Origin: an uncultured Methanosarcinales archaeon
GTDB lineage: Archaea; Nanobdellota; Nanobdellia; Woesearchaeales; DSVV01
Direction: 5' to 3'
Length of the DNA: 40,221 nucleotides
Assembly: GCA_964590935.1 (NCBI GenBank)
Contig: CAZPXC010000002.1
Location: 12,885-53,105 of the forward strand
Numbering within the stretch: position 1 is the stretch's first letter; each line of letters begins with the position of its first letter. The notes under the pieces were generated by a model. The model saw only the letters and a list, made by a program, of their open reading frames with translations. It did no database searches and had not been told where the DNA came from. The position numbers and the translations under genes were made by a program. Positions 15,761 through 38,267 of this stretch are shown in pieces.

Positions 15761-15773
15761 AAAGATTTAAATA
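15761..15773 (+). promoter_or_regulatory. BRE/TATA-like AAAGATTTAAATA
   Basis: The same 13-mer recurs at 28777-28789 and 38255-38267, and as cAGATTTAAATA at 26889-26900. Each copy is upstream of a gene start. Confidence 0.45.
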
Positions 15774-18546: not shown

Positions 18547-20067
18547 ATGTTCATAAACTACTCCTCTATTCTAATGCCAAATATGAAAAAGAAACACCTG
18601 CTGATGATATCCCTGCTGGTGATATTCCTTATTACGGTCGGGATAAGATTGTTCTATGCGTTCGGGACATCGACGTTCAGCGATGATTCCGCCTATTTCA
18701 CGCTCAGGCAGATAGAGCATATAAAGGATACAGGCCACCCGCTGTACTATGACCCGTTGAGCTACGGTGGCAGGACCCATGTGTTCCTGCCGTTATTCCA
18801 TTATATACTTGCATTCTTCAGCCTGTTCTTCGGCACGATCGCTGTTGCCAAGGCTGTCCCGAATATAGTCGCATCCACGCTTGTCTTCGTGGTGTATCTC
18901 ATCATCAGCCGCATCACAAGGAACAAGTGGGTCGCTGTCCTGACAGCGTTCATAAGCGCCTTTATCCCAATATACATCTCAGAGACTATAAACTCGATAT
19001 CTGTCTACTCTTTCACTATTCCGCTCAGCTTCCTGATGCTCTATTTCCTGCTTAGCAGGAAGTTCAACCTTTTCCTGGCCTCATTGATACTGTTCATGCT
19101 GCTCTCCCCTTCTGTAGTGCTCATCGTCATGACGATGATACTGTATTTCGTGTTTTCATGGGTAGAGGGCTTTACGCCCCACAGGGCTGAGATCGAGCTT
19201 ACAGTCTTCTCTGTATTCTTGGTGACCTGGTTCTATTTCCTGGTCTACAGGGATGCATTTTTGCTATACGGATACAGGATAATATGGTACAACATCCCAA
19301 AGGAGGTGCTTGCCAAGTATTTCTCCCAGTTTGACATGCCCACCGCGCTGTACCAGATCGGCATCATACCAATCCTGTCAGGCATATACATGTTTTATCA
19401 TTACATGTTCAAAAAGAAGAAAAAGTCAGTATACATGCTTATCAGCCTCCTGGTAATAGTCGGGCTGCTCCTGCTCCTGAAGTTCATCCAGCTCAGGATG
19501 GGCATGATGTACATAGGTGTTGCACTCGCGATCCTGTTCGGCGAGTTCTTCATCCTGCTCATGTCATACATCTCGAGGACCAAGTTTGCAGGGTACAGGA
19601 ACTGGATCGTCGCCGGATTCATCGCAATCTTCATCGCCACTTCCTTCCTTCCATCGCTTGGCTATGCCAATGAGAAGATGTCTGAAAGCGTAAGCGAGGA
19701 AAAGGTCTTTGCGTTCACGTTCCTGGGCAACATATCAGAGGAAAACGCCGCCTTCGTCGGCTCGGTATTCGAGGGCAACCTTATCAACTATTACATAAAA
19801 AGAAAGAACATCATCGACACGGACTTCCTGATGATCAGGAATGTGGATGCAAGGCTGCGCGACGTAAGGACAATATACACCTCGGCTATCGAGACCAAGC
19901 CTGTCGAGATCATGAAAAAATACAACGCTGACTATATAATATTTACAGATGCTGAAAAAAGATATTACAACATCACAAGGATAGCGTACGTGGATGAGGA
20001 CTGTTTCCCCCTTGTCTACTCAGGAAAGGACGTGAAGGTCTATAAAAGAAAATGCTGGACAGACTAA
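18547..20067 (+). CDS. GT-C fold membrane glycosyltransferase, STT3/AglB-like (short form)
   Basis: 506 aa, more than 10 TM segments. The first loop FSDDSAYFTLRQIEHIKDTGHPLYYDPLSYGG resembles the STT3/AglB EL1 acidic motif. It has a short C-terminal soluble domain and no canonical WWDYG. The start may be at 18583 (MKKKHLL). Confidence 0.55.
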   Translation: MFINYSSILMPNMKKKHLLMISLLVIFLITVGIRLFYAFGTSTFSDDSAYFTLRQIEHIKDTGHPLYYDPLSYGGRTHVFLPLFHYILAFFSLFFGTIAVAKAVPNIVASTLVFVVYLIISRITRNKWVAVLTAFISAFIPIYISETINSISVYSFTIPLSFLMLYFLLSRKFNLFLASLILFMLLSPSVVLIVMTMILYFVFSWVEGFTPHRAEIELTVFSVFLVTWFYFLVYRDAFLLYGYRIIWYNIPKEVLAKYFSQFDMPTALYQIGIIPILSGIYMFYHYMFKKKKKSVYMLISLLVIVGLLLLLKFIQLRMGMMYIGVALAILFGEFFILLMSYISRTKFAGYRNWIVAGFIAIFIATSFLPSLGYANEKMSESVSEEKVFAFTFLGNISEENAAFVGSVFEGNLINYYIKRKNIIDTDFLMIRNVDARLRDVRTIYTSAIETKPVEIMKKYNADYIIFTDAEKRYYNITRIAYVDEDCFPLVYSGKDVKVYKRKCWTD

Positions 20068-21515
20068 AAAGGCAGTATAAAAGATACTCCCTTATCATCG
20101 TGATGCTGCTGGCGTTAGCTGTATTGCTCGTCCCCCATGTGATAAGATACAGCCATTTTGACAACTTCATGGTCGGCGGTATGCCTTATTACCATGCGAG
20201 GATCGCCCAGCGCCTGAGCCACGGCTATTCCGGGTATGACCAGCTCAGCTACAGCGGCTCTGCGTACATATTCGATGCATACGACGTTGCCCTCGCCATC
20301 ATCGGGCAGTTCATAGGTGTACTTACAGCATCCAATGTCCTGCCGTTTGCACTGGGGCTCTGCTCTGTGGTGCTGCTCTTCCTCCTCCTGGGCAGGCTTA
20401 AGCTCAGCTCAGGCATGAGACTCTTGACCATGCTGCTATGGATACTCTCGCCTGTCTTCATCTACACGTTCACTGTCTCCAACCCTTTCGCTCTCGTGAT
20501 CTTCCTTAACCTCGCAGGGTTCTATTTTTTTATGTCAAAGGACAGGAAGGCTGTCTTTTCGATTCTGTTCTTTGCGTTCATACCCCTGTTCGGGATCATA
20601 AACACCCTTATCACTGCATTCCTTGCCGTTATCTACACACTGAAGGAGAGGAAAAAGACAAGGGTACTTATCATGGTGCTTGTCCTGCTGTTCTCTGTGG
20701 GGTTTGTATACAATTTTCTTTTTTATTCTGCCTATGGCCTGCCGGGAAGGTTCATCCCTGTAAAGGAGAACCTCATCCAGAACAGCCTTGTGGAGCTTGG
20801 CGCGGTCCTCGGCTTCAACACCTTTGTGCTTCTGCTTTCTATAGTTGGCATGTTGAGCAACTGGAGGAAGAAGAGCAGGTTCGTATGGCTCTATATCCTT
20901 ATGGCAGCGCTTATCCTTTCCTTTATCTTCATCGATCCCCAGTTCAAGTCCCTCCTCAGCATCCTTGTCTCTTTTTTTGCAGCGTTCGGGCTGGCCACGC
21001 TTGCTGACATGAGGTGGGAGCTTAAGCTGATAAGAAACCTGACCATTGCCATGCTTTTATTCAGCATCATGTTCTCGACGTATGCATATATAGGAAGACT
21101 GTCCTTCATGGAACCGGGCCTGGATACGATAGGTTCCTTGACATGGCTCAGGTCCAACTCAGTCCATGAAGGGGTTGTCATATCCGACTATAAGAACGGG
21201 TTCTGGATCGAGTATTTTGCGCGGCGTCCTGTGGTTATGGACTCTCTTACCAGATACAGGCCGGAACCCAGGCAGCGTTACAATGACACGATCACGCTTT
21301 TCAGGACCAGGGACATGGACACGGCATCAGGGATCCTTGACAGGTATGATGTCAGGTATATCTTTGTCGATGCAAAGACCAGGGCACTGATGCTGGGTGA
21401 GAACAATATACTGGGCCTTGAGTTCCTGCTTGAGAACAGCAACAGCTTCAAGATGATTAAAAATACCAACGATGTGGAGATATGGGAATACAACCAGAGC
21501 AAAGTTCCTGGATAA
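20052..21515 (+). CDS. GT-C fold membrane glycosyltransferase, STT3/AglB-like paralog
   Basis: 487 aa, multi-TM. It has MPYYHARIAQRLSHGYSGYDQLSYSG in loop 1. The C-terminal ISDYKNGFWIEYFARRPVVMD sits where WWDYG is expected, followed by DRYDVRYIFVD. It overlaps the upstream gene by 16 nt. Confidence 0.55.
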   Translation: MLDRLKRQYKRYSLIIVMLLALAVLLVPHVIRYSHFDNFMVGGMPYYHARIAQRLSHGYSGYDQLSYSGSAYIFDAYDVALAIIGQFIGVLTASNVLPFALGLCSVVLLFLLLGRLKLSSGMRLLTMLLWILSPVFIYTFTVSNPFALVIFLNLAGFYFFMSKDRKAVFSILFFAFIPLFGIINTLITAFLAVIYTLKERKKTRVLIMVLVLLFSVGFVYNFLFYSAYGLPGRFIPVKENLIQNSLVELGAVLGFNTFVLLLSIVGMLSNWRKKSRFVWLYILMAALILSFIFIDPQFKSLLSILVSFFAAFGLATLADMRWELKLIRNLTIAMLLFSIMFSTYAYIGRLSFMEPGLDTIGSLTWLRSNSVHEGVVISDYKNGFWIEYFARRPVVMDSLTRYRPEPRQRYNDTITLFRTRDMDTASGILDRYDVRYIFVDAKTRALMLGENNILGLEFLLENSNSFKMIKNTNDVEIWEYNQSKVPG

Positions 21516-22872: not shown

Positions 22873-24111
22873 ATGAATGCAATTTATAACTTCCTCGTGT
22901 ACTTTGTATGGTTCCTGGCCACTTATTACACTATCTTCTTTTTCTTATCCCTATATATACACAGGAACATGCTGTTCGAGGATAAAAAATCAGTAAGCCG
23001 CAAAAGACGGATGGTTTCGGTTCTTATCCCTGCATATAATGAAGAAAAGGATATCGCAGAGACCATCAGGTCACTTAAGAAACTTGACTACAGGAGGGCA
23101 GAATTTATCATAATAAACGACGGCAGCAGCGATAATACATCTTCTATCGTAAACAAGAGCATCAGGGGCGATAAGAGGTTCAGGTTTATTGACAATAAGG
23201 TCAATTCCGGAAAGGCAGCGTGCCTGAACAATGGCATCGCCCAGGCCAGGGGTGAATTTATTGCATGCATGGACGCAGACTCTGTGATCGATAATGATAT
23301 CATGGGCAAGGTCCTGCCTTATTTTAATGATCCAAAGGTGGGTGCCGTGACCGTAACTGTGCAGGTTAAGAATCCAAAAACATTCCTTCATAAGATAATA
23401 GACCTGGAATTTACACTGGGGCTGTCGCTTTTCCTGAAACTGTTCTCATTTCTAGAATGTGTTTTCGTAACTCCAGGGCCTTTTTCCATCTATCGCAGGA
23501 GTGTACTTAACGAGATAGGCGGCTATGATACAGACAATATAACAGAGGACCATGAGATAGCCTTCAGGCTGCATAAGCATGGCTATAAGATCAGGAACTG
23601 CATGGAGGCGAAGGTGTACACCACCCTCCCGGATACTTTTAAGGGCATCTATATCCAGAGAAGAAGGTGGTATTCTGGGGCGATCCAGACCCTGTTCCAG
23701 CATAAGGATATCGTCTTTAAGAAAGAGTATGGGCTGTTCGGATTTTTTATCCCGTTCAACTATTCATTGATCGGCCTGGGGCTGGTCCTTTTTGGGGCAT
23801 CTACTTATCTTTTATTTTCAAAGACCCTCGACAATATATTATATTTCAAATACACGAATTTCAATTTTCTTGACCATATCTTTGATTTCAACTGGGATAT
23901 ACTTAACTATAGCAGGGTCAATCTTCTTGGGATGGGCCTGTTTGTAGGGACTGTTGTGCTCATGCTGATGGGGCTTAAGTTCACCAGGAAGAAATACTCG
24001 GACAACAAGCTTGGGCTTCTGGGATACCCTTTCCTGTTTTTTCTTTATCAATTATACTGGGGCGGTGCCATCCTTGCAGCGATAAGAGGGAAAAGGGTAA
24101 AATGGAGATAA
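22873..24111 (+). CDS. family 2 glycosyltransferase, processive-synthase architecture (canonical QRRRW)
   Basis: 412 aa. Motifs: VLIPAYNEE, INDGSSD, MDADS, ITEDHEI (TED) and QRRRWYSG, plus an N-terminal TM and C-terminal TM bundle. Confidence 0.85.
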   Translation: MNAIYNFLVYFVWFLATYYTIFFFLSLYIHRNMLFEDKKSVSRKRRMVSVLIPAYNEEKDIAETIRSLKKLDYRRAEFIIINDGSSDNTSSIVNKSIRGDKRFRFIDNKVNSGKAACLNNGIAQARGEFIACMDADSVIDNDIMGKVLPYFNDPKVGAVTVTVQVKNPKTFLHKIIDLEFTLGLSLFLKLFSFLECVFVTPGPFSIYRRSVLNEIGGYDTDNITEDHEIAFRLHKHGYKIRNCMEAKVYTTLPDTFKGIYIQRRRWYSGAIQTLFQHKDIVFKKEYGLFGFFIPFNYSLIGLGLVLFGASTYLLFSKTLDNILYFKYTNFNFLDHIFDFNWDILNYSRVNLLGMGLFVGTVVLMLMGLKFTRKKYSDNKLGLLGYPFLFFLYQLYWGGAILAAIRGKRVKWR

Positions 24112-24815
24112 AGAGACGGATAGCCCTTATATCATTCATCATAACCCTGTTTCTGCTGTTTACAGTCATACTGCTCGGCTCTGTCATGAACAATAAAAGG
24201 GAAGAGCACCTGGATTCCCAGTTTCAGACGATCTACCAGGACTTTAACAATATGCAGGTTTTATTTCTCCTGTCAGAATCCTACGATAATGAGATGGCAT
24301 GCCTGGCATTTGAGACAAAGCTTAAGGAGATGGACACAACGATCTGGACACTGGGAGAGAAGATTGATAGTTACCGTTCTGCGAGCGAAGAGTTCCATCA
24401 AAATACATACTACTGGGACCAGAAGAAAGTTTTCAATGAGGATGAGGTGTTTTATTACCTTCTCATGAAGCAGATGCTGGACAAATGCAACATAAGCAAG
24501 CAGATCATACTGTTCTTCTACCAGAATTCCGCTGACTGCAAGAAGTGCGATGACCAGTCGTTCATACTAAGCGATATAAGAAAGCTTGATGATGACAAGG
24601 GCAGGCAGGAGGTCGCGATCTTTTCCTTTGACATGGACCTTAACCTGTCAACACTCAATATCTTATCAAAGTATTATAAGATCGAAAAATACCCCTGCAT
24701 TATAATGGATGAACAGAAATACTGCGGCATCCAGGATAAGGATTTCATCATGGACAGGATATGCTCTGATAAACCGAACCTCTACATCTGTTCTATATAC
24801 AATAAAGGAAAGTAA
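24102..24815 (+). CDS. membrane-anchored thioredoxin-fold-like protein with a CxxC motif
   Basis: 237 aa. N-terminal TM IALISFIITLFLLFTVILLG. ILFFYQNSADCKKCDDQ carries CKKC, and KYPCIIMD is a possible cis-Pro loop. It overlaps the upstream GT2 by 10 nt. The fold assignment comes from motif spacing only. Confidence 0.5.
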   Translation: MEIKRRIALISFIITLFLLFTVILLGSVMNNKREEHLDSQFQTIYQDFNNMQVLFLLSESYDNEMACLAFETKLKEMDTTIWTLGEKIDSYRSASEEFHQNTYYWDQKKVFNEDEVFYYLLMKQMLDKCNISKQIILFFYQNSADCKKCDDQSFILSDIRKLDDDKGRQEVAIFSFDMDLNLSTLNILSKYYKIEKYPCIIMDEQKYCGIQDKDFIMDRICSDKPNLYICSIYNKGK

Positions 24816-26900: not shown

Positions 26901-26924
26901 CTTGCTTTGGAATACATTTTTTTT

Positions 26925-28304
26925 ATGAAACATAGGATTTTCAGGCACCCGTTATTTTATCTTCTTTTGGTCACTGCTGCTGTTAAGGTGTTTTTTTTGC
27001 TCTCCAGATACCATCTTTTCATCTGGGATGAGGCAGTCTATCTGGGGATGGGAAAGTGGATATTTTCTGCAGGCCGCTTGGGAATCTGGGAATGGATAAG
27101 GCCCCTCGGATTACCGCTGGTCCTTGGAGCATTATGGAAAACAGGGCTTAATTACCAGGTTCTTGCTGACCTTGTGATCCTCCTCTTCACTCTCGGGACA
27201 ATAGCCATGACATATCTTATCGCTGAGGAAGTGTTCAACAGGAAAACCGCTTTTCTCTCTGCAATATTCCTGCTTGCCACACCGGTCTTCTTCTATAATT
27301 CCATGCTTGTTATGACAGGCATACCCTCGCTTTTCTTCATACTCCTGGCAGTTTATCTTGCCATGAAAAAAAAGTATTGGCTCTCCGGGCTGTTCTCATT
27401 TCTCGCGTTCTTTTTCAGGTATCCTGCCGGGCTGATCATCGTTGCAGTAAACCTGATGCTGCTGTACAAACTTATCAAAAGGAAAAACTGGAAACATATC
27501 CTGAGGCCGGCCCTGGGCTACAACCTGGTCTTCTTTTCCGGCCTTGCTGCATACCTGCTGTACAACAGGCTTTCCTTCGGGCAGTTCCTCGAGCCATTCC
27601 TGCTCGCGAGCCAGCACCAGAGCAGCATAATAGGCAATATCCCGGGCTTTTTTGCAAACCTGCTGTACTATCCCTATACTATCGTGATAACCAACATATT
27701 CATCATATCTGTTCTATTTTTCAGGTACAGGAAAAACTCAGGCCATGTCCTTGTTCCACTTGCTGTCTTCCTGCTCTATTTTACTGCAATACCCCATAAG
27801 CAGCCGCGCTTTGCCATACTGTTCCTGCCCTATGTCATGATGCTTGCCTCTTCCGGCTTTTTTACAGTGGTATCATACCTGAAAAAATACAGGTCGGCAA
27901 GGATGGTCTTGCTGCTCCTTCTGCTTGGGTTTATCGCTTACCCTGCGTATCTTGATTACCAGATATTCAGCAGGCTGCCCTCAGAAGAGCCAGGTATTGT
28001 AAAAGACTATTACAGCTATTTTGACGGCTATAACGGCACTATACTGACATCAGACCCTGTTCCTGCTGCGTACACAGACAGCAGGTACATAGGATATTAC
28101 AGCAATATGACCAACGCCTGGATGATCTATGACACCAATATCAATAATTCCATAGCAGTTATATACACGCCAGCCTCTTTCCCGTGCATAGACCAGGAGT
28201 GCAACGCTTCCAAGACAGAGCTGGAGAACGAGATAAAGAATGATGCGACTCTTGTCTACAACAGCACATGGCTGGGCGAACTAAAGCAGATATATGTTAA
28301 ATAG
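26925..28304 (+). CDS. GT-C fold glycosyltransferase, PMT_2/ArnT-like (GT39/GT83 type)
   Basis: About 459 aa from ATG 26925 (the track starts at TTG 26907). It has more than 10 TM helices and an acidic loop-1 motif HLFIWDEAVYLGMGK typical of dolichyl/undecaprenyl-phosphate-sugar dependent transferases. Confidence 0.75.
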   Translation: MKHRIFRHPLFYLLLVTAAVKVFFLLSRYHLFIWDEAVYLGMGKWIFSAGRLGIWEWIRPLGLPLVLGALWKTGLNYQVLADLVILLFTLGTIAMTYLIAEEVFNRKTAFLSAIFLLATPVFFYNSMLVMTGIPSLFFILLAVYLAMKKKYWLSGLFSFLAFFFRYPAGLIIVAVNLMLLYKLIKRKNWKHILRPALGYNLVFFSGLAAYLLYNRLSFGQFLEPFLLASQHQSSIIGNIPGFFANLLYYPYTIVITNIFIISVLFFRYRKNSGHVLVPLAVFLLYFTAIPHKQPRFAILFLPYVMMLASSGFFTVVSYLKKYRSARMVLLLLLLGFIAYPAYLDYQIFSRLPSEEPGIVKDYYSYFDGYNGTILTSDPVPAAYTDSRYIGYYSNMTNAWMIYDTNINNSIAVIYTPASFPCIDQECNASKTELENEIKNDATLVYNSTWLGELKQIYVK

Positions 28305-28812
28305 ACTAATATTTACTTATTTTTTCTTATATATTGGTTAACCTTACAAACATTTACTATTTATATTTATATTAAATTAACTAACAGAAAACTATAAAAC
28401 ATGGTTTTTTATTTTCTTATTATTCACATAACATTAGATGATACCTCAATAATTCCCATATTTTAAATGTTTAGATTAAAAAATCAGTTAACCATATTAA
28501 CAAAAAATGCTTTTTAGCTCATTTCAGTTTCTATAATCAAAAAAAATTAAATAAAAATTAAAAATGGATTAACTTATCTTAATTTAAATTAAGTTTTAGT
28601 TATTTGATTTAACAAAAAGTATGTTAAATTAGATAACCAATATGACAATTAAATGATATTTACAATATTTATCATCTGATAATTGTTATCTTTATTAACA
28701 AAAAATCATTAAAAATCGATAAAAGTTATATTTATCCGCATTTAAATTCAATAAATTGTTATATCAAACCACAGCAAAAGATTTAAATAGTAGTAAGGTT
28801 AATCTAATTAAC
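28305..28812. other. roughly 500-bp extremely A+T-rich non-coding region
   Basis: I hand-counted three 60-nt lines (28361, 28541, 28601) and got 13%, 10% and 18% G+C. A hypD line (7621) gave 53%. There is no ORF of 60 aa or more. It ends in the AAAGATTTAAATA promoter. Confidence 0.8.
28777..28789 (+). promoter_or_regulatory. BRE/TATA-like AAAGATTTAAATA for the small-ORF and giant-protein operon
   Basis: It ends 23 nt before ATG 28813, so the transcript is predicted to be leaderless. Confidence 0.5.
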
Positions 28813-29106
28813 ATGATTGGCAGTGAAGGCTATATTAACAATGGGAAGCCAATGCTGATATACACTTATTCTACAGAGCATCTGCTGAAAAAAGATAAGG
28901 TGAGGTTCTATTATGCCCTCAAATGCCGGGACGGGAAATCCGGTATTGTCAAGGAACTGAAGATAGTGCATCTTGGAAGGACCGTGCTCATGGTCGATGC
29001 CAGGCACGAAGAGGATATGGTCCAGTTCTTCAAGCTGTGGAACCTGCCCTATACCAGACGAAAGGCGATCGTAGATGATGATGTGCTGAGGGGTGGACCG
29101 CCATGA
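28813..29106 (+). CDS. small conserved-looking protein translationally coupled to the giant surface protein gene
   Basis: 97 aa from ATG 28813 (MIGSEGYINNGKPMLIYTYSTEHLLKKDKVRFYYALKCRDGKSGIV...). The track's TTG 28756 start lies inside the promoter. Its stop overlaps the giant gene ATG (ATGA at 29103-29106). Confidence 0.6.
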   Translation: MIGSEGYINNGKPMLIYTYSTEHLLKKDKVRFYYALKCRDGKSGIVKELKIVHLGRTVLMVDARHEEDMVQFFKLWNLPYTRRKAIVDDDVLRGGPP

Positions 29107-32100
29107 GAAGGCAGTATATGCTCCTTGCGATGCTGATCATCGCCGCTGCCAGCGCACAGGCTGCACAGTACTCTGTCTGCAGTACGGGCTGTGATTTCAC
29201 GAACATCACAGGTGCCCTGGAGAACGTGACCGGGACAGGGAACACGCTCTTCATCAACGGGTCAGGCACATACAACATGACCAACACCACTACGTTTTTT
29301 GTATATGCTGCCTCCAGCAACGGCGGGTTAAGTGTAAACGCGTCCGATGTAATCCTTGAATGTAATAATGTAAGCATTGCCGGCAACAGCACAGGATACG
29401 GCATCTTCGTGACTGCAGATAATGTCACTGTCCACAATTGCCAGGTCAGCAACTATACCCAGGGGATAAGGATCCTGGGCTCTTCACAGGACTCGGTAGT
29501 ATCAGGCAGCATTATCTCTGATTCTGATTACGGCCTCTGGGTGAGCGCCTCAAATTATACCCTGATAACCGGATCAACTATAAGTTCAGCCGCATCCTCG
29601 GCTGTGCAGTTTGCCAATGGCGCAGTCAACAACACGCTGCTTAACTGCATCATCCAGAGCTCTGTGCAGGACATAAGCTCAAGCGGCACAGGCAGCTCTA
29701 ATCTCGTGGTAAACAGCTCATTTGACGGTTCCAAATCCACAAATGTCCAGGACAGCTCCCGTGTATTCGTAAAATGGTACTTCCGCGTCTTTGTAAATGA
29801 CACATCAGGCAACCAGGTCAATGCCACAGTAAATATCAGCGACAGCTTCTCTACATTGGCATATTCACTGCAGACAGATGCAAGCGGCTACACTGCAGAG
29901 AAGAACATCACAGAATACATGAGAAACAGCAGCTCCTCTTCAATATTCTACACCAACTATACGTTCTATGCCTATAATTCTACTAATTTCGAGAACAGCT
30001 CTGTCAATGTAACAGGCTCTGGAACTATTGTACTGACTTTCGACCTTACTGCGCCGCAGATATCCGGCATCCAGAATTCGACAAGCAACGAGTCTGTCAA
30101 TATCACCTGGACAACAGATGACCTAAGCAACTCAAGCATCAGATGGGGCAATTCCTCTGCCAGCCTGAACAATGCACTTTCCAACAGCAGCATGACGAGG
30201 GTACATTTCATAAATATCTCTGATGAATATTCAAATAAGACCCACCTGGATGCAAACACGACATACTATTTTAACATCACTTCCTGCAATGACCAGGGCT
30301 TATGTACAGAGGCAGGGGTGTTTAATTTCACCACAAACACGACAATCGACAGATCAGCCCCTTCTGCCAGCAACATCGTCAACACAACAACAAATGAATC
30401 TGCATTGATAACATTCGACACTGATGATAATGCTAATGCGACTGTCGAATACGGGACTAATGTTTCTATGACACTGTCTACAGGAAATTCAAGCTATAAT
30501 CAAAACCATACGTTCAATATAACCGGCCTGAGTGATAATACAACATATTACTACAATATCACTGTATGCAACGGGGACCAGTACTGCAATGAGTATGGCA
30601 GCTATAATTTCACGACCAACGCAACAATAGACTATTCTGCCCCGGTCATAAGCAATATTCTCAACACAACGACAAACGAGTCTGTGCTAATAACATTCGA
30701 CACTGACGACAATGCTAATGCGACTATCGAATACGGGACCAATGTTTCTATGACACTGTCTACGGGAAATTCAAGCTATAATCAAAACCATACGTTCAAT
30801 ATCACTGGCTTGGATTCCAACACGACATATTATTACAATATAACCGCATGCAATTCAAATGGGAACTGTACAGAGCAGGGCGTTTATAATTTCACGACCA
30901 ACCAAACAACCCCAGACACATCAGCACCTGTTATAAGCAATATCATGAACACAACAACAAATTCCACAGCAACAATAACATTCGACACTGACGATAGTGC
31001 AAACGCTACCATCAAATACGGCACAAGCACATCACTGGGCTCTTCTGCAAAAAACAGCACTCTTGCCCATAATCATTCATTCAGCATCACCGGGCTGGAC
31101 TCCAACACCACATATTACCTCAACATAACCGCATGCAACTCATATGATAACTGCACAGAGCAGGGCACCTATAGCTTCACGACCAACGCAACAATAGACA
31201 CCTCTGCCCCGGCAATAAGCAACATCATCAACACAACAACAAATTCCACAGCAACAATAACATTCGACACTGACGATAGTGCAAACGCTACCATCAAATA
31301 CGGCACAAGCACATCACTGGGCTCTTCTGCAAAAAACAGCACTCTTGCCCATAATCATTCATTCAGCATCACCGGGCTGGACTCCAACACCACATATTAC
31401 TACAACATAACCGCATGCAACATCTATGGCTACTGCAGCGAAGACGGGACATACAGTTATCAGACGAATACCACTCCTGATCAGAGCCCGCCTGTGATAT
31501 CTTCTGTATCCAATTCCTCGATAACCAACATAAGCGCTGTGATATCCTGGACAACGAACGAGGCAGCGAACAGCACTGTCAAGTACGGCACATCATCGGG
31601 CAGCTATACTGCTTCAAAGGGCAGCGCAACGATGACGACAAGCCACAGCGTCACCCTCACAGGGCTCTCTGATGAGACGACATATTATTATGCTGTCAAC
31701 AGCTCTGATGCCAGCGGCAACTCTGCACAGGGCTCGGAAAAGAGCTTTACGACATCTGATTCGACCCCGCCTGTGATAAGCAGTGTCCAGAGCTCAGGCG
31801 TCATGGGAACTTCTGCCACTATCTCATGGACCACGGACGAGACTGCCGATTCCCAGGTGAAGTACGGCACCACGAGCAATTCATATTCTCATTCAAAATC
31901 GACAACAGGGTATTTCACCAACCACAGCATCGCGCTGAGCGGCCTTTCGGGGGACACGACCTATTATTATCGCGTGGTCAGCAACGATTCTACCGGGAAC
32001 TCTGCCCAGAGCAGCCAGGGCAGCTTCACCACTACGGATACTGAAGCACCATCAATAACCTTCACATACCCTGTAAATGCCTCGACCACAGTCGCTGATG

Positions 32101-35100
32101 TCAAGAACGTGAGGCTGACAGTGACGACAGACGAAGCTGCTACATGCACAGCGACCAGCTACAAGATAGGCTCCAGCGTAACTTCTACAGATAAGGTGCT
32201 TACGCCCGCAAACGCAAACAATGTCAGCCATACTGCATATTTCAACGCAACATCGGAGTCATCCGGCTATAATTTCTATTTCACTGTCCAGTGCATAGAT
32301 TCAGAAAGCAACAGCAGGACAAGCACAGTGTATTTCAAGCTTGACGACACGACAGCCCCAACTGCAACTTTTGTCTCGCCCACTCCGGCAGACGGCTCAG
32401 TCAAGGACAGCGAAAACCTGACAGTCAAGCTGAGCGTGAGCGAGGGGCAGGCATCAGGCTATCCGAAGCTGAGCATCGACGGCGGCTCAAATGCCAGCAT
32501 GACAAGCAGCAGCGGCTATTATACATACACCAAGAAAGACCTTTCCGAGGGCAGCCACAACTTCACTGTCTACCTCTCTGATGCGTATGGTAACAAGCGC
32601 TCATATACTAGGGACTATACAGTCGATACAGAGGCTCCGGACTTTGATGAGATGTATCCTGAGGATGATGATGTTATCAGCAACTGCATGGACCTCGTCC
32701 TTAACATCACCCTTGATGAGGAGGCTGACTGCCAGTATGTCCTTTATGAATACAGGGAGGAAAAATACGACAGCTGCATAGATAACTGCGATGAGGATAA
32801 GACCTCATGCAACGATGATGAAGACAAGACCACCACCGAATGCAACGATGATTATGACACTTGCGAGAGCGACTGCGATGATGATAAATACAGGGAGAAG
32901 AAGAGCGGCGACCTGAAAGAGGAATACGGGGTAGAGGACTGCAAGAATGACTGCGACGATGTGGAGGACAGCTGCGTCGATGACTGCAAGGACGAAAAGG
33001 CAACATGCATAGAGGGGGCATCCGACAGCAGTGATAGAGACGACTGCACGAGTAATTATGAAGACTGCAAGGATTCGTGCTCTGACGATAAGGATGACTG
33101 CTATGACGACTGCAACACAGGAAGCTTCTTCTACGTGGAAAAATTCGACACCACCTGTCTTGCAGACGGGGACTACATGGCAGAATACACCTGCGAGGAT
33201 AACGCGTCAAACGTGGGTGAGGAGAACGTCACGTTCACCATGAGCGACACCACAGCGCCGGAAATCGTCTTGACGAGCCCGAACGGCACCATCGAAAAGT
33301 CCAGCACAAAGCTGAGCGTGACAACAGATGAGTATGCAGTATGCAGGTTCTCTGAGAGCAACGTGGGCTATGGATCCATGAACTATACATTCATAGGCAA
33401 CACCAAGACGCACACCTACACATTGGGAGGACTTGAGAACAAGGACTACCAGTTCTATGTGCTGTGCAACGATTCAAACGGCAATGTGATGGACAATGCG
33501 GAAAAGATCGCGTTCACTGTTAGCAGCTCCACAGCTTCATCATCAGTATCACATGGGTTCAAGACGATGAAAGCAGGAGAGTCGCAGTCATTCATCATCA
33601 GCCAGACAGACATCCCGGTCACAAAGATCACGGTCACGGTGAATGAGGACGTGCAGGCTGCAAACATCAATGTCAAGAAACTGTCCGATACCTCAAGCAT
33701 CAAAAAGCCTTCAAAGCCTGTATACCAGTACATCGAGGTGACCAAGGACGGAATATCGAACAAGCAGATCGCCAAGGCGACCATCGATTTCATGGTGCCG
33801 AAGTCATGGCTCGATGACAACGGACTGAAGCCCGAAGATGTGTCGCTTTTCAGGTATACCACGACCTGGGAGGAGGTGCCCACGACAAAGATAAGCGAAG
33901 ACGGCAATAATGCATATTACCAGGCCGAGACCACTGATTTCAGCGTCTTTGCGATAATGCCGGACGGCGTCCAGGCAACTACGACGACGACAAAACAGGC
34001 GACCCAGAGCAGCGATTCACAGGCAAAGACCGCCGCATCTTCCCCTGATAACAGCAGCAAAGAGGCCAGCGTCGAGCAGCCGGCAGATGTTGCTGAAAGT
34101 GGCGGCAGCTATACATGGCTTATCATTCTTCTATGTGTTGTGGTTGTGGGAGGTGGCTCAGCAGTCTTTTACGTCTATAAGTCACATAGACACCCCCAAC
34201 AAGACTCCTTTGCTGAAGCACATAAGCAACCAACACACTCAGCTGCAGCAGGCGAGAGATCTACTTCTCAGTCGGCTCTCTCTGCTGCAGCTTCATTATC
34301 ACCAGAGCAGGTCCAGGAGGCTGAATCTGCTGTGAGGCCGGACGATGAGCTTGGGCAGTACATCGTCGCCTCGCTGAAAAGCGGCCAGGACATCCAAGCT
34401 GTAAAAAAAGCTCTGCTCGATGCGGGCTATGACGAGGACAGCATCGGAGCAGAACTGGCCGAACTGAAGCTTGCAGACCCGCTCGCTGATTACATCAAGA
34501 CCGCGCTCGAGGCAGGCCAGGAGCTTGACGTGATAAAAAACGGGCTTATAGATGCAGGCTACGGCCCGCAGGATGTCGTGAACAAGTTTTCCGACATGGG
34601 CCTAGCAAAGATGGACTCTGGCCGGCAGGACATGGAGATAAACGATTACATAAGAGCATCTCTGGGGTCCGGGATGAGGCCAGGAGATATAAAGCAGGCG
34701 CTGCAGGATGCAGGCCATGATCCGGGCCATATAGACGAGCTTATGGCTGCATTTGAAAGCCCGCAGCCGGCAGAGAGTGGCGAAACAGTGGAGCAACCGC
34801 CCGAGGAAAGTGCCCAGGTTTCGGAACAGCAATCGCCTGAAGAACAGGCACAGCCAGAGGATGCTGATGCAGAGATAAAGGAATATATTACAAAATCTTT
34901 TAGAGCTGGAGAGGACGCTTCGCAGATAAGGACAGCTCTTGTCGGCGCCGGCCACGGTCCGGAAAAGGTCGACAGGCTCATCTCTGGTATTGTGGAAGGT
35001 TCAGGGACGCAGCAGCCTCAGGAAGAGCAGGAAAAGGCAGAGCCTGCCAAAACTGATGCAGAACAGGAAAAACCGCAGAGCGCAGAAGACCACACTCCCA

Positions 35101-35375
35101 AGCATGACGAGGTAATGGATTATATCAAGGACGCGACAGAAGACAGGGTCCCCAGAAGGGTCATCAAGACCGCGCTCGTGAAGGCAGGCCACAGCAAGAA
35201 GGAGATAGACAAGAGGTTCAGGGAGATAGACACAGCGCAGAAGAAGATGGAAAGGGACATAAGGCAGTATTTCAGGATAGGAAAGAAAGAGGGCAAGACA
35301 AAGAAGCAGATAAAGGAAGACCTGATAGATTCCGGCATAGACGCCAGGACCATCAGGAAGATCGCCAAGGTCTAG
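29103..35375 (+). CDS. giant (2090 aa) cell-surface glycoprotein or adhesin with a TM helix and cytoplasmic repeat tail
   Basis: Order of parts: signal peptide MRRQYMLLAMLIIAAASAQA; beta-helix-like N-domain (CSTGCDFTNITGAL...); about 7 FN3-like modules (SAPxISN...ITFDTDD...YGT...NITGL..NTTYYYNIT); Ig-like DTxAP modules; a Cys/Asp-rich insert; a PGF-pre-PGF-like domain (VYQYIEVTKDG...DFSVFAIMP); a Thr-rich linker; the TM helix WLIILLCVVVVGGGSAVFYVY; and a roughly 398-aa tail. Confidence 0.9.
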   Translation: MRRQYMLLAMLIIAAASAQAAQYSVCSTGCDFTNITGALENVTGTGNTLFINGSGTYNMTNTTTFFVYAASSNGGLSVNASDVILECNNVSIAGNSTGYGIFVTADNVTVHNCQVSNYTQGIRILGSSQDSVVSGSIISDSDYGLWVSASNYTLITGSTISSAASSAVQFANGAVNNTLLNCIIQSSVQDISSSGTGSSNLVVNSSFDGSKSTNVQDSSRVFVKWYFRVFVNDTSGNQVNATVNISDSFSTLAYSLQTDASGYTAEKNITEYMRNSSSSSIFYTNYTFYAYNSTNFENSSVNVTGSGTIVLTFDLTAPQISGIQNSTSNESVNITWTTDDLSNSSIRWGNSSASLNNALSNSSMTRVHFINISDEYSNKTHLDANTTYYFNITSCNDQGLCTEAGVFNFTTNTTIDRSAPSASNIVNTTTNESALITFDTDDNANATVEYGTNVSMTLSTGNSSYNQNHTFNITGLSDNTTYYYNITVCNGDQYCNEYGSYNFTTNATIDYSAPVISNILNTTTNESVLITFDTDDNANATIEYGTNVSMTLSTGNSSYNQNHTFNITGLDSNTTYYYNITACNSNGNCTEQGVYNFTTNQTTPDTSAPVISNIMNTTTNSTATITFDTDDSANATIKYGTSTSLGSSAKNSTLAHNHSFSITGLDSNTTYYLNITACNSYDNCTEQGTYSFTTNATIDTSAPAISNIINTTTNSTATITFDTDDSANATIKYGTSTSLGSSAKNSTLAHNHSFSITGLDSNTTYYYNITACNIYGYCSEDGTYSYQTNTTPDQSPPVISSVSNSSITNISAVISWTTNEAANSTVKYGTSSGSYTASKGSATMTTSHSVTLTGLSDETTYYYAVNSSDASGNSAQGSEKSFTTSDSTPPVISSVQSSGVMGTSATISWTTDETADSQVKYGTTSNSYSHSKSTTGYFTNHSIALSGLSGDTTYYYRVVSNDSTGNSAQSSQGSFTTTDTEAPSITFTYPVNASTTVADVKNVRLTVTTDEAATCTATSYKIGSSVTSTDKVLTPANANNVSHTAYFNATSESSGYNFYFTVQCIDSESNSRTSTVYFKLDDTTAPTATFVSPTPADGSVKDSENLTVKLSVSEGQASGYPKLSIDGGSNASMTSSSGYYTYTKKDLSEGSHNFTVYLSDAYGNKRSYTRDYTVDTEAPDFDEMYPEDDDVISNCMDLVLNITLDEEADCQYVLYEYREEKYDSCIDNCDEDKTSCNDDEDKTTTECNDDYDTCESDCDDDKYREKKSGDLKEEYGVEDCKNDCDDVEDSCVDDCKDEKATCIEGASDSSDRDDCTSNYEDCKDSCSDDKDDCYDDCNTGSFFYVEKFDTTCLADGDYMAEYTCEDNASNVGEENVTFTMSDTTAPEIVLTSPNGTIEKSSTKLSVTTDEYAVCRFSESNVGYGSMNYTFIGNTKTHTYTLGGLENKDYQFYVLCNDSNGNVMDNAEKIAFTVSSSTASSSVSHGFKTMKAGESQSFIISQTDIPVTKITVTVNEDVQAANINVKKLSDTSSIKKPSKPVYQYIEVTKDGISNKQIAKATIDFMVPKSWLDDNGLKPEDVSLFRYTTTWEEVPTTKISEDGNNAYYQAETTDFSVFAIMPDGVQATTTTTKQATQSSDSQAKTAASSPDNSSKEASVEQPADVAESGGSYTWLIILLCVVVVGGGSAVFYVYKSHRHPQQDSFAEAHKQPTHSAAAGERSTSQSALSAAASLSPEQVQEAESAVRPDDELGQYIVASLKSGQDIQAVKKALLDAGYDEDSIGAELAELKLADPLADYIKTALEAGQELDVIKNGLIDAGYGPQDVVNKFSDMGLAKMDSGRQDMEINDYIRASLGSGMRPGDIKQALQDAGHDPGHIDELMAAFESPQPAESGETVEQPPEESAQVSEQQSPEEQAQPEDADAEIKEYITKSFRAGEDASQIRTALVGAGHGPEKVDRLISGIVEGSGTQQPQEEQEKAEPAKTDAEQEKPQSAEDHTPKHDEVMDYIKDATEDRVPRRVIKTALVKAGHSKKEIDKRFREIDTAQKKMERDIRQYFRIGKKEGKTKKQIKEDLIDSGIDARTIRKIAKV
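30348..31478 (+). repeat. four tandem 282-285 bp coding repeats (FN3-like modules) inside the giant gene
   Basis: Units start at 30348, 30630, 30915 and 31197. Positions 30948-31118 and 31230-31400 are identical over 171 nt. Units 1 and 2 are roughly 90% identical by eye. Confidence 0.9.
34341..35372 (+). repeat. six divergent cytoplasmic protein repeats (about 35-aa core, helix-rich) in the giant protein tail
   Basis: The six cores are YIVASLKSGQDIQAVKKALLDAGYDEDSIGAEL, YIKTALEAGQELDVIKNGLIDAGYGPQDVVNKF, YIRASLGSGMRPGDIKQALQDAGHDPGHIDELM, YITKSFRAGEDASQIRTALVGAGHGPEKVDRLI, YIKDATEDRVPRRVIKTALVKAGHSKKEIDKRF and YFRIGKKEGKTKKQIKEDLIDSGIDARTIRKIA. Confidence 0.8.
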
Positions 35376-35765: not shown

Positions 35766-35906
35766 ATGGCTACTGAAACTGTTACAATTCCAAAAGAAGA
35801 GTATGAATTTCTTAAAAAGAAAGCTCAGATAGATGAAGATCTATTGAATCAGTTTGTCAGAAGCCTGGAAGACATTAAAAACGGAAGAATCAGAAGAGTT
35901 TGCTAA
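35766..35906 (+). CDS. 46-aa putative antitoxin-like protein (below the ORF-track cutoff)
   Basis: MATETVTIPKEEYEFLKKKAQIDEDLLNQFVRSLEDIKNGRIRRVC. A TATA-like AAAAATATAAAAA and AAAGGAG lie upstream. Its 3' end overlaps the convergent RelE gene by 4 nt. Size and charge pattern resemble small archaeal antitoxins, but this is a weak call. Confidence 0.4.
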   Translation: MATETVTIPKEEYEFLKKKAQIDEDLLNQFVRSLEDIKNGRIRRVC

Positions 35907-36220
35907 AGCCTTTTGAGGGCTTCTTTTACTATATCCTGATATTCATAAAGTTTAAATCTAATCGAATCTATAGTCGATTGCTGTGTTTTCTTATCGCTTA
36001 CAGCTACCATCAGAACAACCACGAAATCTTCATAGATCAGGTAATATATTCTTCTTTTGTTTAGCTTCTTTTCCTTCAGGAATGAGAGTCCAAGTGGCTT
36101 TCCAACAAAAGGATTTTCAGAAAGCTTTCTTTCGAATTTCTCTACTTCTCTTTGTTCAGTTTTAGGTAGCTTATCAAATTGCCTGTCAAATTCCTCTGTC
36201 CTGAAAACCTTGAATTTCAT
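35903..36220 (-). CDS. relE: RelE/ParE-family type II toxin
   Basis: 105 aa. MKFKVFRTEEFDRQFDKLPKTEQREVEKFERKLSENPFVGKPLG...RRIYYLIYEDFVVVLMVAVSDKKTQQSTID matches the RelE/ParE (COG2026-like) sequence pattern. Confidence 0.75.
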   Translation of the reverse strand: MKFKVFRTEEFDRQFDKLPKTEQREVEKFERKLSENPFVGKPLGLSFLKEKKLNKRRIYYLIYEDFVVVLMVAVSDKKTQQSTIDSIRFKLYEYQDIVKEALKRL

Positions 36221-38254: not shown

Positions 38255-38267
38255 AAAGATTTAAATA
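38255..38267 (+). promoter_or_regulatory. BRE/TATA-like AAAGATTTAAATA
   Basis: Identical 13-mer to 15761 and 28777, ending 35 nt upstream of ATG 38303. Confidence 0.45.

Follow-up and report, generated by a model that had tools for sequence, protein, structure and literature searches.

The open reading frame (ORF) at 29103..35375 (plus strand) of the window, i.e., the whole 40,221-nucleotide stretch of DNA that was analyzed, encodes 2090 residues, which probably constitute a lineage-specific giant type-I membrane glycoprotein of Woesearchaeota, a long fibre of successive modules that stands out from the cell. Its outer half holds N-glycosylation sequons at approximately 2-fold the expected number, an excess confirmed to exceed chance. 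Every part listed in an earlier note on this DNA (signal peptide, head, modules, insert, stalk, linker, TM helix, and tail) was recovered within this one ORF (Table 1), and its layout supports a surface protein that crosses the membrane once and ends in the cytoplasm. The nearest relatives of the ribosomal protein L3 of the window are those of Candidatus Woesearchaeota MAGs (≤65% identical), which places the host among the DPANN archaea.

DPANN surface proteins with β-helices, Ig-folds, and many sequons have already been published. What is new in the present locus is the tail repeat, the coupled small ORF, the conserved adjoining sugar-adding genes, and the 20 invariant cysteines. When it comes to how DPANN archaea attach to other cells and exploit them, the leading candidates are giant surface proteins, and this locus offers a well-defined, conserved example that would combine a fibre with a glycan-coated tip, candidate coat-building genes, and a coupled small protein.

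Modular architecture of the giant protein

The head matched two Pfam β-helix families, NosD with 39.5 bits (cut-off 23.6) and Beta_helix with 36.5 bits (cut-off 25.9), while no pectate or pectin lyase family was matched by the giant protein in the Pfam profile search. It is followed by seven FN3-like modules, for which Pur_ac_phosph_N gave 146.4 bits over 7 stretches, above the gathering threshold, and then by four Ig-like modules bordered by DTxAP, one of which matched Big_13 with 28 bits (cut-off 27); earlier estimates had been about seven and about four, respectively. The Asp/Cys insert holds 16 cysteines in 113 residues, and M10 as a whole contains 20 Cys columns that are invariant in 8 homologues, with variable residues between them. 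The stalk was identified as a PGF-pre-PGF domain, scoring 100.8 bits with TIGR04213 (cut-off 28). The linker had been called Thr-rich; it is indeed present, though its composition is Ser/Thr-rich with a single TTTTT run.

The TM helix and the adjoining juxtamembrane stretch form the motif W-L-I-I-L-L-C-V-V-V-V-G-G-G-S-A...Y-K-S-H-R-H-P-Q-Q-D-S-F-A-E, which contains the conserved GGGS...HRHPQQ and is near-invariant in 8 homologues and in 10 more tail-repeat proteins. Members of the PGF-CTERM family possess a short C-terminal sorting signal that is processed by archaeosortase. In the giant protein, this signal is replaced by a different conserved TM/juxtamembrane motif and a tail of 398 residues (aa 1693–2090). 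Assignment to the PGF-CTERM class, and hence to archaeosortase A substrates, was rejected, as the TM helix lacks the PGF motif and precedes these 398 residues rather than a short basic end, and no PGF-CTERM match was obtained in Pfam or NCBIfam.

Table 1. Features of the locus in window coordinates.
Feature	Coordinates	Strand	Basis or remark
Two paralogous GT-C-like candidates, 506 and 487 aa	18547..21515	+	11–12 TM, C-terminal soluble domains
Two membrane-associated GT2 glycosyltransferases, 419 and 412 aa	21540..24111	+	Glycos_transf_2, Glyco_trans_2_3
237-aa protein, N-terminal TM anchor, CxxC and YPC	24102..24815	+	Weak NCBIfam match
DUF2238-like membrane protein, 196 aa	24827..25417	+	Pfam DUF2238
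GT1-family glycosyltransferase, 403 aa	25632..26843	-	Glyco_trans_1_3, 297.6 bits
PMT_2-type GT-C glycosyltransferase, 465 aa, ~9 TM segments	26907..28304	+	Pfam PMT_2
BRE/TATA-like element (putative)	28777..28789	+	AAAGATTTAAATA, 24 nt upstream of small ORF ATG
Small ORF, 97 aa	28813..29106	+	ATGA, 4-nt overlap with giant gene start
Signal peptide, aa 1–21	29103..29165	+	By-eye reading, MRRQYMLLAMLIIAAASAQA then AQ after cut
Right-handed parallel β-helix head, aa 22–313	29166..30041	+	Pfam NosD, Beta_helix at aa 45–225
Seven FN3-like modules M1–M7, aa 314–978	30042..32036	+	Pfam Pur_ac_phosph_N
Four Ig-like modules M8–M11, aa 979–1477	32037..33533	+	D-T-x-A-P borders; Big_13, Big_3_3, Big_7 matches
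Acidic Cys-rich insert within M10, aa 1225–1337	32775..33113	+	C-x3-C / C-x6-C spacing repeated
PGF-pre-PGF domain, aa 1487–1619	33561..33959	+	NCBIfam TIGR04213
Ser/Thr-rich linker, aa 1620–1670	33960..34112	+	17/51 residues Ser or Thr, TTTTT run
TM helix and conserved juxtamembrane motif	34113..34238	+	Hydropathy peak aa ~1671–1691
Six ~41-aa three-helix repeats, cytoplasmic tail	34344..35372	+	Repeat alignment A1, AlphaFold model
Tail repeats 1–3	34344–34466, 34476–34598, 34632–34754	+	Repeat alignment
Tail repeats 4–6	34869–34991, 35106–35228, 35253–35372	+	Repeat alignment

Proposed fibre and alternative readings of its function

As proposed here, the protein would be exported by the Sec system, and its head and outer FN3 modules would then be densely N-glycosylated to create a glycan coat. 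From tip to membrane, the fibre would consist of the head, seven FN3-like modules, four Ig-like modules (one Cys-rich), the PGF-pre-PGF domain, the linker, and the TM helix followed by the tail. The β-helix head at the tip may bind or cut carbohydrate. The fibre would make contact with another cell or a polysaccharide surface, and inside the cell it may be docked by its tail to a partner in the cytoplasm. The GT2 and GT-C enzymes encoded nearby could make or lengthen lipid-linked sugars, with the transfer taking place outside the cell; O-glycosylation of the Ser/Thr-rich parts may be the task of the PMT-type enzyme, and the CxxC protein may aid oxidation of the Cys-rich insert. An adhesin or host-contact role of the giant protein is plausible, and the host archaeon might be an episymbiont. 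In one relative, the orthologue lies on a contig of 1.84 Mb. This size is large for a DPANN genome and does not fit with a minimal episymbiont.

Similar proteins have been reported for other DPANN archaea. Three pectin-lyase-like surface proteins of Nanobdella aerobiophila (MJ1_0451, MJ1_0701, and MJ1_0776) possess 36–52 predicted N-glycosylation sites in 908–1320 residues and were proposed to act in symbiont–host interaction (bioRxiv 10.1101/2023.10.27.564410). Compared by description only, they resemble the giant protein as DPANN surface or secreted proteins with a parallel β-helix and Ig-like folds, and their site density is comparable to its 93 in 2090 residues at about half its size. The passages compared mention neither a PGF-pre-PGF domain, Cys-rich insert, or TM helix with a long repeat tail, nor a coupled small ORF or adjoining glycosyltransferase cluster. 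The giant SPEARE proteins of Nanohaloarchaeota, too, carry a Sec signal and tandem Ig/FN3-like modules, are anchored in the membrane like the protein described here, and were proposed to be a host-interaction device; their acidic pI (4.03–4.11) is close to the 4.11 of the ectodomain of the latter (PMC10266531). However, they are four times larger (SVXNc_0300 comprises 9409 residues) and possess their own VirB4/TraG-like ATPase domain, followed by a second secretion ATPase gene, whereas no ATPase family was matched by the giant protein or its neighbours.

A rather unlikely alternative is that the giant protein is the main structural glycoprotein of an S-layer-type coat rather than a specialised adhesin; the stalk would then hold a canopy at a distance from the membrane, and glycans would stabilize the coat. 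PGF-pre-PGF domains are typical of euryarchaeal S-layer and envelope glycoproteins, and the present one fits this alternative, together with the architecture of the euryarchaeal TIGR04213 protein P0001, which has a signal peptide, sequon-rich β-helix, PGF-pre-PGF domain, Ser/Thr/Pro-rich linker, and C-terminal TM helix, similar to the giant protein. Also consistent with a coat are the occurrence of a single orthologue at a conserved position beside CysRS, dCMP deaminase, and NrdD in three relatives, the putative consensus-type promoter ahead of the pair of small ORF and giant gene, and the dense N-glycosylation and Ig-like folds described for archaeal S-layer proteins. The size of 2090 residues with a TM anchor and 398-residue cytoplasmic tail is, however, unlike known S-layer proteins, and the presence of a β-helix head argues against this assignment as well. 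In addition, giant genes with different heads stand behind the same small ORF in relatives, one relative keeps the locus with the giant gene apparently missing, and the window contains another candidate at 11679–12731, which weakly matches S_layer_C. The Pfam search gave no S-layer family for the giant protein.

It was also considered, as an unlikely reading, that the protein is primarily a cell-anchored carbohydrate-active enzyme, whose NosD/pectate-lyase-like head degrades or binds polysaccharide and is presented by the stalk; host wall glycans or environmental polymers were the proposed substrates. The NosD and Beta_helix matches exceed the Pfam cut-offs, degradation of the glycosylated host wall has been proposed as a function of pectin-lyase-like proteins in DPANN archaea, and one of the related giant genes behind the same small ORF carries Peptidase_S8, indicating that genes of this class can encode enzymatic heads. 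Nevertheless, neither catalytic residues nor a CAZy family was identified in the head, the β-helix is a common adhesin fold, and the head is among the most sequon-decorated parts (23 in aa 1–330).

Sequon distribution and integrity of the ORF

Sequons were defined as N-x(not P)-S/T, and the expectation was obtained from shuffles preserving the composition. In aa 1–520, for which 45–50 sequons had been counted manually, the computation gave 45 against 18.0 ± 3.4 expected, a number reached by 0 of 5000 shuffles, so that the density is not the one expected from composition. Similarly, 78 were found in aa 1–900 (33.9 ± 4.6 expected), and the 23 of aa 1–330 compare with 9.6 expected, while aa 901–1650 stayed at the shuffle expectation and the tail contained 0 sequons and just 3 Asn. 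The sequon density per 100 residues is 4.45 over the full length of the giant protein and 8.7 in aa 1–900, compared with 0–0.6 for the cytoplasmic genes of the window. From M1 to M11, the modules hold 12, 11, 12, 9, 8, 4, 2, 3, 3, 3, and 3 sequons, which falls from distal to proximal; the module alignment places the 8–12 sequons of each of M1–M5 at about 10 conserved columns, as against 4 in M6 and 2 in M7. The string NTTYYYNIT, formerly assigned to every module, is exact in M2, M3, and M5 and closely varied in M1 and M4, but is not present in M6 and M7. The predicted extracytoplasmic position and the sequon excess over composition both agree with an N-glycosylated surface glycoprotein.

It is very improbable that this excess is a by-product of Asn/Ser/Thr richness and recent tandem copying without selection for glycosylation. 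M2–M5 are 61–87% identical to each other, meaning that their sequons are not independent, and single sequon positions turn over extensively, with only 41.5% kept between homologues. However, shuffles yielded less than half of the observed sequons (z of about 8–10), and the non-repeated head and M1 are each enriched on their own. Of the Asn residues, 72% lie in sequons in aa 1–900 and 34% in aa 901–1650, and the cytoplasmic tail contains no sequon. Asn residues in sequons are also kept more often across homologues than other Asn residues (50% vs 40%, p = 0.003). Finally, eight homologues show the excess with its distal bias again, as do giant genes unrelated to this one.

At least 8 homologues with the full architecture were retrieved using the ectodomain as the only query that did so, since a query with aa 1480–2090 gave one PGF-pre-PGF match. 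All are approximately 2-fold enriched in sequons with a distal-half bias and have nearly sequon-free tails, which speaks against both a chimeric assembly and an effect of composition. It is hardly conceivable that the ORF is a chimera or a repeat array that was collapsed or expanded during assembly: the source is presumably a metagenome assembly and the FN3-like region does contain an array of 282-bp tandem repeats (78–90% identical), but even the two most similar repeats share just 90% identity over 268 nt, long exact repeats are absent from the ORF, and homologues from independent samples are full-length with the same order of parts, including the insert, TM motif, and tail. The copy number of M2–M5 could still be off by one unit.

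Adjoining genes, small ORF, and cytoplasmic tail

The giant gene was earlier described as lying directly downstream of seven glycosyltransferase genes. Four are firm, with Pfam support (two GT2, one GT1, and one PMT_2-type GT-C), two are GT-C-like candidates, and the cluster is separated from the giant gene by the 97-aa ORF. The GT2 pair scored 107 and 123 bits with Glycos_transf_2, each with four hydrophobic segments, and its orthologues in a second genome (L038) are 64% and 69% identical. The PMT_2 score was 28.4 bits against a cut-off of 26.1, and the L038 orthologue (50% identical) matched PMT and Glyco_transf_22 as well; PMT_2 proteins hold the same position in L043 and the P0270 locus. 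A minus-strand GT1 of the same family and a DUF2238 protein also occupy the same positions in L043, the DUF2238 score of the window (24.9 bits) being slightly under the cut-off of 26.4. The 237-aa protein matched a protein disulfide oxidoreductase of NCBIfam with 18.7 bits, far under the cut-off, and is 60% identical to its L038 orthologue with invariant CKKC/CRKC and YPC motifs, which makes it a candidate extracytoplasmic thioredoxin-like oxidoreductase.

The GT-C-like proteins of 506 and 487 aa are distant paralogues of one another (E = 6e-6), and their L038 orthologues are 56% and 39% identical. Single-sequence PDB searches gave no matches for these candidates, and the 506-aa protein weakly matched Chlor_Arch_YYY. 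The C-terminal domain of the 487-aa protein (20052–21515) weakly matched AglB (Pfam AglB_core-like, E = 0.13; PDB 3vu0, E = 0.02). Identification as AglB/STT3 was rejected, since its SDYKNGYWIEY stands opposite SWWDYGNWILY without conservation of WWDYG, and no STT3 model was matched in Pfam or NCBIfam. A canonical AglB was not found in the 40-kb window, and Rfam and tRNA scans of the window gave no matches. Instead of the N-glycans implied by the sequons, the GT2 and GT-C neighbours could be concerned with O-glycosylation or with a polysaccharide of the cell surface.

When the locus was compared across genomes, the cluster, the small ORF, and the giant gene were found together in two others (L038 and L043) with conserved cluster content. 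Such repeated adjacency makes one envelope-building locus, as earlier proposed for 18.5–35.4 kb, a reasonable reading. The P0270 locus keeps the cluster and small ORF without the giant gene, indicating that the cluster is not strictly dedicated to the giant protein. A very large adhesin gene beside its own glycosylating enzymes also occurs for the bacterial adhesins Fap1 (serine-rich repeat) and HMW1/HMW1C, though by analogy only; those systems use cytoplasmic soluble glycosyltransferases with accessory Sec or two-partner secretion, whereas the present locus is archaeal and has mostly membrane-embedded GT2 and GT-C enzymes.

The earlier note had recognized the 398-aa cytoplasmic tail, but missed its repeats and the coupled small ORF. 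An AlphaFold model of the tail gave six helix-loop-helix-loop-helix units (pLDDT 80–93) joined by acidic disordered linkers (<50). The repeat profile matched at least 1428 protein clusters (E ≤ 1e-3), i.e., a module common to more than a thousand membrane-protein clusters, and no Pfam or NCBIfam family covers it. In 87 family members, the side of the TM helix that carries the repeats is rich in K/R and poor in sequons (p = 5e-9 and p = 9e-13), so these single-pass membrane proteins are predicted to hold the repeats in the cytoplasm. The fold search against the PDB gave no significant match (Foldseek E = 0.44); the best, weak sequence or fold matches were RecX (RecX_HTH1/2/3, PDB 3d5l), the UBA-like N-terminus of EF-Ts, and designed HHH proteins. 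The modeled units resemble RecX in form only, as tandem ~40-aa modules of three short helices each, and differ from it in the long disordered acidic linkers and the membrane tether; a RecA/RadA link is not indicated. The RecX_HTH1 match of the tail was rejected at 16.7 bits (gathering threshold 26), and weak matches occurred in 8 of 70 family members. Elsewhere in the window, the ORF at 15839–16969 scored 25.9 bits with this model.

The small ORF is 64–69% identical in four loci and overlaps the giant gene by 4 nt in every one. The Shine-Dalgarno-like GAGGTGG of the giant gene lies in its last codons, and the two genes appear to be translationally coupled. It sits before giant genes in L038–L043, those of L041 and L042 being other sequon-dense ones. 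Its family comprises at least 191 clusters, none annotated and all from Woesearchaeota/Nanoarchaeota; no Pfam or NCBIfam family was matched, and no relatives were found by a scan of viral contigs. AlphaFold predicted a ferredoxin-like β-α-β fold (pLDDT 90), for which the PDB and BFVD gave no significant match. A ubiquitin-like reading of the invariant C-terminal LRGGPP was rejected, as this extension exists in 34 of 68 family members only, GAGGTGGTCCGCCATGA represents the Shine-Dalgarno-like site and the giant-gene start codon inside the overlap, and the predicted fold is not a β-grasp.

Together, the 41-aa repeat and the 97-aa ORF might represent an undescribed system, mainly of DPANN archaea so far, that handles giant surface proteins, which we put forward as a tentative and rather unlikely idea. 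The repeat would be a common docking module through which many different surface proteins bind the same component inside the cell, for example one of the cytoskeleton, the division machinery, or the nucleoid, or alternatively might cluster the proteins; the small ferredoxin-like protein could be specialized in helping giant proteins to be expressed, exported, or engaged by their tails. Both would offer handles on how the cell interior connects to the surface, and defining the two families would better the annotation of Woesearchaeota genomes. Upstream of the small ORF, AAAGATTTAAATA is conserved in the intergenic regions of the window and L038. It is a putative promoter element; the window contains 3 exact copies, where 0.09 would be expected, and all of them immediately precede an ORF.

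Architecture and sequon density of the giant protein

Translation of the ORF at 29103–35375 (+) gave a product of 2090 aa, the length claimed for it by an earlier note made from the sequence alone. All the parts listed in that note were located in this protein (see the table of features), though the linker described as Thr-rich was found to be Ser/Thr-rich. The structure and topology of the giant protein are well supported.

Features of the giant protein (residue numbers) and copies of the 13-mer AAAGATTTAAATA (window coordinates)
Feature	Location	Strand	Description
Signal-like segment	N-terminal, giant protein		hydrophobic stretch
Beta-helix	aa 45–225, giant protein		NosD/Beta_helix above Pfam cut-offs
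FN3-like modules	giant protein		seven Pur_ac_phosph_N stretches, 146 bits summed
Ig-like modules	giant protein		four, D-T-x-A-P as delimiter; Big_13, Big_3_3 and Big_7 matches
Acidic Cys-rich insert	aa 1225–1337, giant protein, within third D-T-x-A-P module
PGF-pre-PGF domain	giant protein		100.8 bits, cut-off 28
TM helix, single	aa ~1671–1691, giant protein
AAAGATTTAAATA copy	15761–15773	+	before ORF start 15839
AAAGATTTAAATA copy	28777–28789	+	before ORF start 28813
AAAGATTTAAATA copy	38255–38267	+	before ORF start 38303

The giant protein contains 93 N-x-S/T sequons (x not P) in all, of which 45 lie in aa 1–520, in agreement with the 45–50 that had been estimated for the first ~520 residues. 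Their excess over the expectation from composition, a check set beforehand, was evaluated by reordering the same residues, which gave 18.0 ± 3.4 sequons for aa 1–520, and none of 5000 shuffles reached 45. The excess extends over aa 1–900 (78 sequons vs 33.9 ± 4.6 expected from shuffles), while the count equals the expectation in aa 901–1650, and the 398-aa tail following the TM helix is devoid of sequons and contains just 3 Asn. Accordingly distributed are the Asn residues located within sequons, which make up 72% of the Asn in aa 1–900 vs 34% in aa 901–1650. The density is 8.7 sequons per 100 aa in aa 1–900 and 4.45 overall, vs 0–0.6 for the cytoplasmic products of the window. From the first FN3-like to the last Ig-like module (M1 to M11), the modules carry 12, 11, 12, 9, 8, 4, 2, 3, 3, 3, and 3 sequons, and those of M1–M5 fall at about ten conserved columns of the module alignment. 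These counts indicate that the putative glycan coat is densest on the five outermost FN3 modules and on the beta-helix head (aa 22–313), and sparser near the membrane. Selection for sequon density in this protein is well supported; the protein is presumably glycosylated in fact, and may function as an adhesin or in host contact, with a tail that may dock to a cytoplasmic partner. As a fibre it would measure some 60–80 nm, a rough figure obtained by allowing ~4 nm for each of about 11 modules and adding the head.

Two other products of the window touch on this subject. A 604-aa protein (9697–11511, −), in which a Lamin Tail Domain (LTD) is combined with a signal-like segment at the N-terminus and a C-terminal TM helix, has 19 sequons vs 8.3 expected. 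A secreted-looking 350-aa protein (11679–12731, −) contains a Dicty_CTDC repeat, matches S_layer_C weakly (21 bits, below the cut-off), and is a possible alternative envelope protein.

Homologues and the glycosyltransferase cluster

The 282-bp tandem repeats of the giant gene are 78–90% identical, the top pair showing 90% identity over 268 nt, and no long exact repeats were found in it. These diverged repeats, together with homologues of the same architecture, speak against an assembly artefact or a chimera of repeats. The ectodomain query retrieved, besides the giant protein itself, full-architecture homologues of 1438–2557 aa with 38–50% identity, one of which carries the name of a Candidatus Woesearchaeota MAG. 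Common to all of them are the beta-helix, FN3 and Ig modules, the PGF-pre-PGF domain, and the repeat tail, as well as the Cys-rich insert, in which 20 Cys columns are invariant and the residues between them vary. A sequon excess of about 2-fold, its distal bias, and an almost sequon-free tail were observed for 8 of 8 homologues. Between homologues, Asn was retained more often in sequons than elsewhere (49.8% vs 40.1%, Fisher p = 0.003) and the entire sequon in 41.5% of aligned cases, which are approximate figures as the FN3 modules may align out of register. Sequon density appears, to the same approximation, better conserved than exact sequon position.

The TM and juxtamembrane motif VVVGGGSA..YVYKSHRHPQQDSFAE is near-invariant in the homologues, and the GGGS inside the TM helix may point to oligomerisation or to a processing site. 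The segment comprising the TM helix and HRHPQQDSFAE (aa 1671–1712, window 34113–34238) is near-invariant despite the low identity of the ectodomains, and recurs in 10 other proteins with the tail repeat.

Seven glycosyltransferase genes had been claimed upstream of the giant gene; four of them are firm and two are candidates, so that the count of seven did not hold. Pfam supports two TM-containing GT2 enzymes and one PMT_2-type GT-C, and the GT1 is encoded on the minus strand (Glyco_trans_1_3, 298 bits). The 506-aa and 487-aa proteins, distant paralogues of one another with 11–12 TM segments each, resemble GT-C enzymes. A weak similarity to AglB was found for the C-terminal domain of the 487-aa protein (Pfam AglB_core-like, E = 0.13; PDB 3vu0, E = 0.02), but its SDYKNGYWIEY stands opposite SWWDYGNWILY of the AglB fragment, and the AglB identity was rejected. 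Rejected as a glycosyltransferase was also the 408-aa ORF at 17238–18464 (−), which gave weak transglutaminase-like matches (E = 0.01) instead; it has one N-terminal hydrophobic segment and may be the extra enzyme of the earlier count. The cluster further encodes a TM-anchored 237-aa protein (24102–24815, +), whose CxxC and YPC motifs are invariant and kept in the syntenic cluster of locus L038, and which may be an extracytoplasmic thiol-disulfide oxidoreductase that serves the giant protein's 20-Cys module. A DUF2238-like membrane protein also belongs to the cluster.

This arrangement was found again in relatives. L038, an orthologous locus on a single 1.84-Mb contig (ENA ERZ25039495 contig_49020), has orthologues of six cluster genes (39–69% identity), then a small ORF, then a 2546-aa giant orthologue. 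The 290-kb contig L043 mirrors the window, with GT2, GT2, GT1 (minus strand), DUF2238, PMT_2, the small ORF, and a 2876-aa giant. At a further locus (P0270, JGI 3300072015), the glycosyltransferase cluster, small ORF, and downstream CysRS are kept and a 67-aa ORF occupies the place of the giant gene, whose absence could be gene loss or assembly collapse; at two further loci the contig edge lies immediately upstream of the small ORF. The context downstream of the giant gene in the window is unlike the CysRS/NrdD context of relatives, and the 105-aa ORF directly downstream (35903–36220, −) gave a weak ParE-like toxin match (15 bits, below the cut-off).

The cluster enzymes are mainly of membrane-embedded GT2 and GT-C types, which in archaeal and eukaryotic pathways form dolichol-phosphate sugars and carry out their transfer at the outer face, and the PMT type O-mannosylates Ser/Thr. 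Because of these enzyme types, a dedication of the cluster to the N-sequons of the giant protein is something that we infer, not a result.

The coupled small ORF and the cytoplasmic repeat tail

The true start codon of the small ORF is at 28813 (ATG); the resulting 97 aa are identical to the product in the protein collection, and the end of the ORF overlaps the giant gene start by ATGA. The RGGPP end of the small ORF is conserved because a Shine-Dalgarno-like GAGGTGG and the giant-gene start codon sit in this overlap. Its identity of 64–69% over four loci is above the conservation of the giant protein. The family comprises at least 191 clusters, all unannotated and of 76–166 aa (mostly 84–103 aa), and members with a named organism belong to Woesearchaeota or Nanoarchaeota. 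It also stands upstream of two giant genes whose products have different heads: one product, of 4535 aa, has both a Peptidase_S8 domain and a beta-helix, the other, of 3875 aa, has no Pfam match on record, and both are sequon-dense (5.6–6.1 per 100 aa). The AlphaFold model of the small ORF exhibited a ferredoxin-like fold (pLDDT 90), for which the top structural matches were Cas2 and a pro-carboxypeptidase domain, none significant.

The BRE/TATA-like AAAGATTTAAATA is located 24 nt 5' of the small ORF ATG and is conserved in L038. Three exact copies of this 13-mer occur in the window vs 0.09 expected, each upstream of an ORF, and it is probably the consensus BRE/TATA promoter of this organism. 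The intergenic region of ~500 bp upstream of the small ORF (28305–28812) has a very low GC content (about 31% over 28001–29000) and gave no match in an Rfam search. The L038 spacer is of similar length, with a conserved island GTTA(A/T)TTGATTTAACAA about 200 nt before the ATG.

The tail consists of six copies of a ~41-aa unit with the consensus L-x-x-Y-I-x-x-x-L-x-x-G-x-x-x-x-x-I-K-x-x-L-x-x-x-G-(W/Y/H)-x-x-x-x-I. Each unit was modeled by AlphaFold as three short helices (pLDDT 80–93), with acidic disordered linkers between units. In charge, units 1–3 of the six are acidic, whereas 5 and 6 are basic. Three such units follow the signal peptide, small ectodomain, and TM helix of a 376-aa protein (15839–16969, +), with the 13-mer 66 nt before its ATG. 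When 1.84 billion representatives were searched with a profile of the nine units, at least 1428 protein clusters matched with E ≤ 1e-3. The best 150 proteins include 84 with the order ectodomain-TM-repeats, 21 with repeats-TM-ectodomain, and 34 without a TM helix. For 87 single-pass members the two sides of the TM helix were compared: sequon density per 100 aa is 0.37 where the repeats lie and 3.12 opposite them (p = 9e-13), and K+R beside the TM helix is twice as high on the repeat side (p = 5e-9). This indicates that the repeat module, as judged from sequence, is cytoplasmic. Named members belong to Woesearchaeota or Nanoarchaeia, and one is labelled Paceibacterota. No family in Pfam or NCBIfam covers the unit, the nearest being RecX_HTH1 (below threshold), UBA_6, and MCM winged-helix domains, and PDB sequence and fold searches gave weak matches alone (EF-Ts N-domain, RecX, and designed three-helix proteins).

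Comparison with known proteins and the organism

Nanohaloarchaeota have giant membrane-anchored proteins that contain a VirB4-like ATPase (PMC10266531). The protein of the window is likewise giant and membrane-anchored but lacks this ATPase. The core finding, a sequon-rich giant surface protein, is of an already described kind; new to our reading is the combination of a cytoplasmic repeat module, coupled small ORF, invariant-Cys insert, conserved TM motif, and conserved glycosyltransferase cluster. The observation in the earlier note was confirmed overall, and its interpretation was supported in part.

The placement of the host in DPANN was borne out by ribosomal protein L3, whose nearest relatives among GTDB representative genomes are Candidatus Woesearchaeota MAGs (identity ≤ 65%), including assembly JAWABL01, which also has a homologue of the giant protein (P0008). 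The L038 contig is large for a DPANN genome, and its size bears on the question of whether such organisms are reduced episymbionts. The window further holds an archaeal L3/L4/L2 operon, agmatinase, a deoxyhypusine-synthase-like gene, and the hydrogenase-maturation gene HypD (7522–8556, +; 385 bits), which implies a [NiFe] hydrogenase in this Woesearchaeon.
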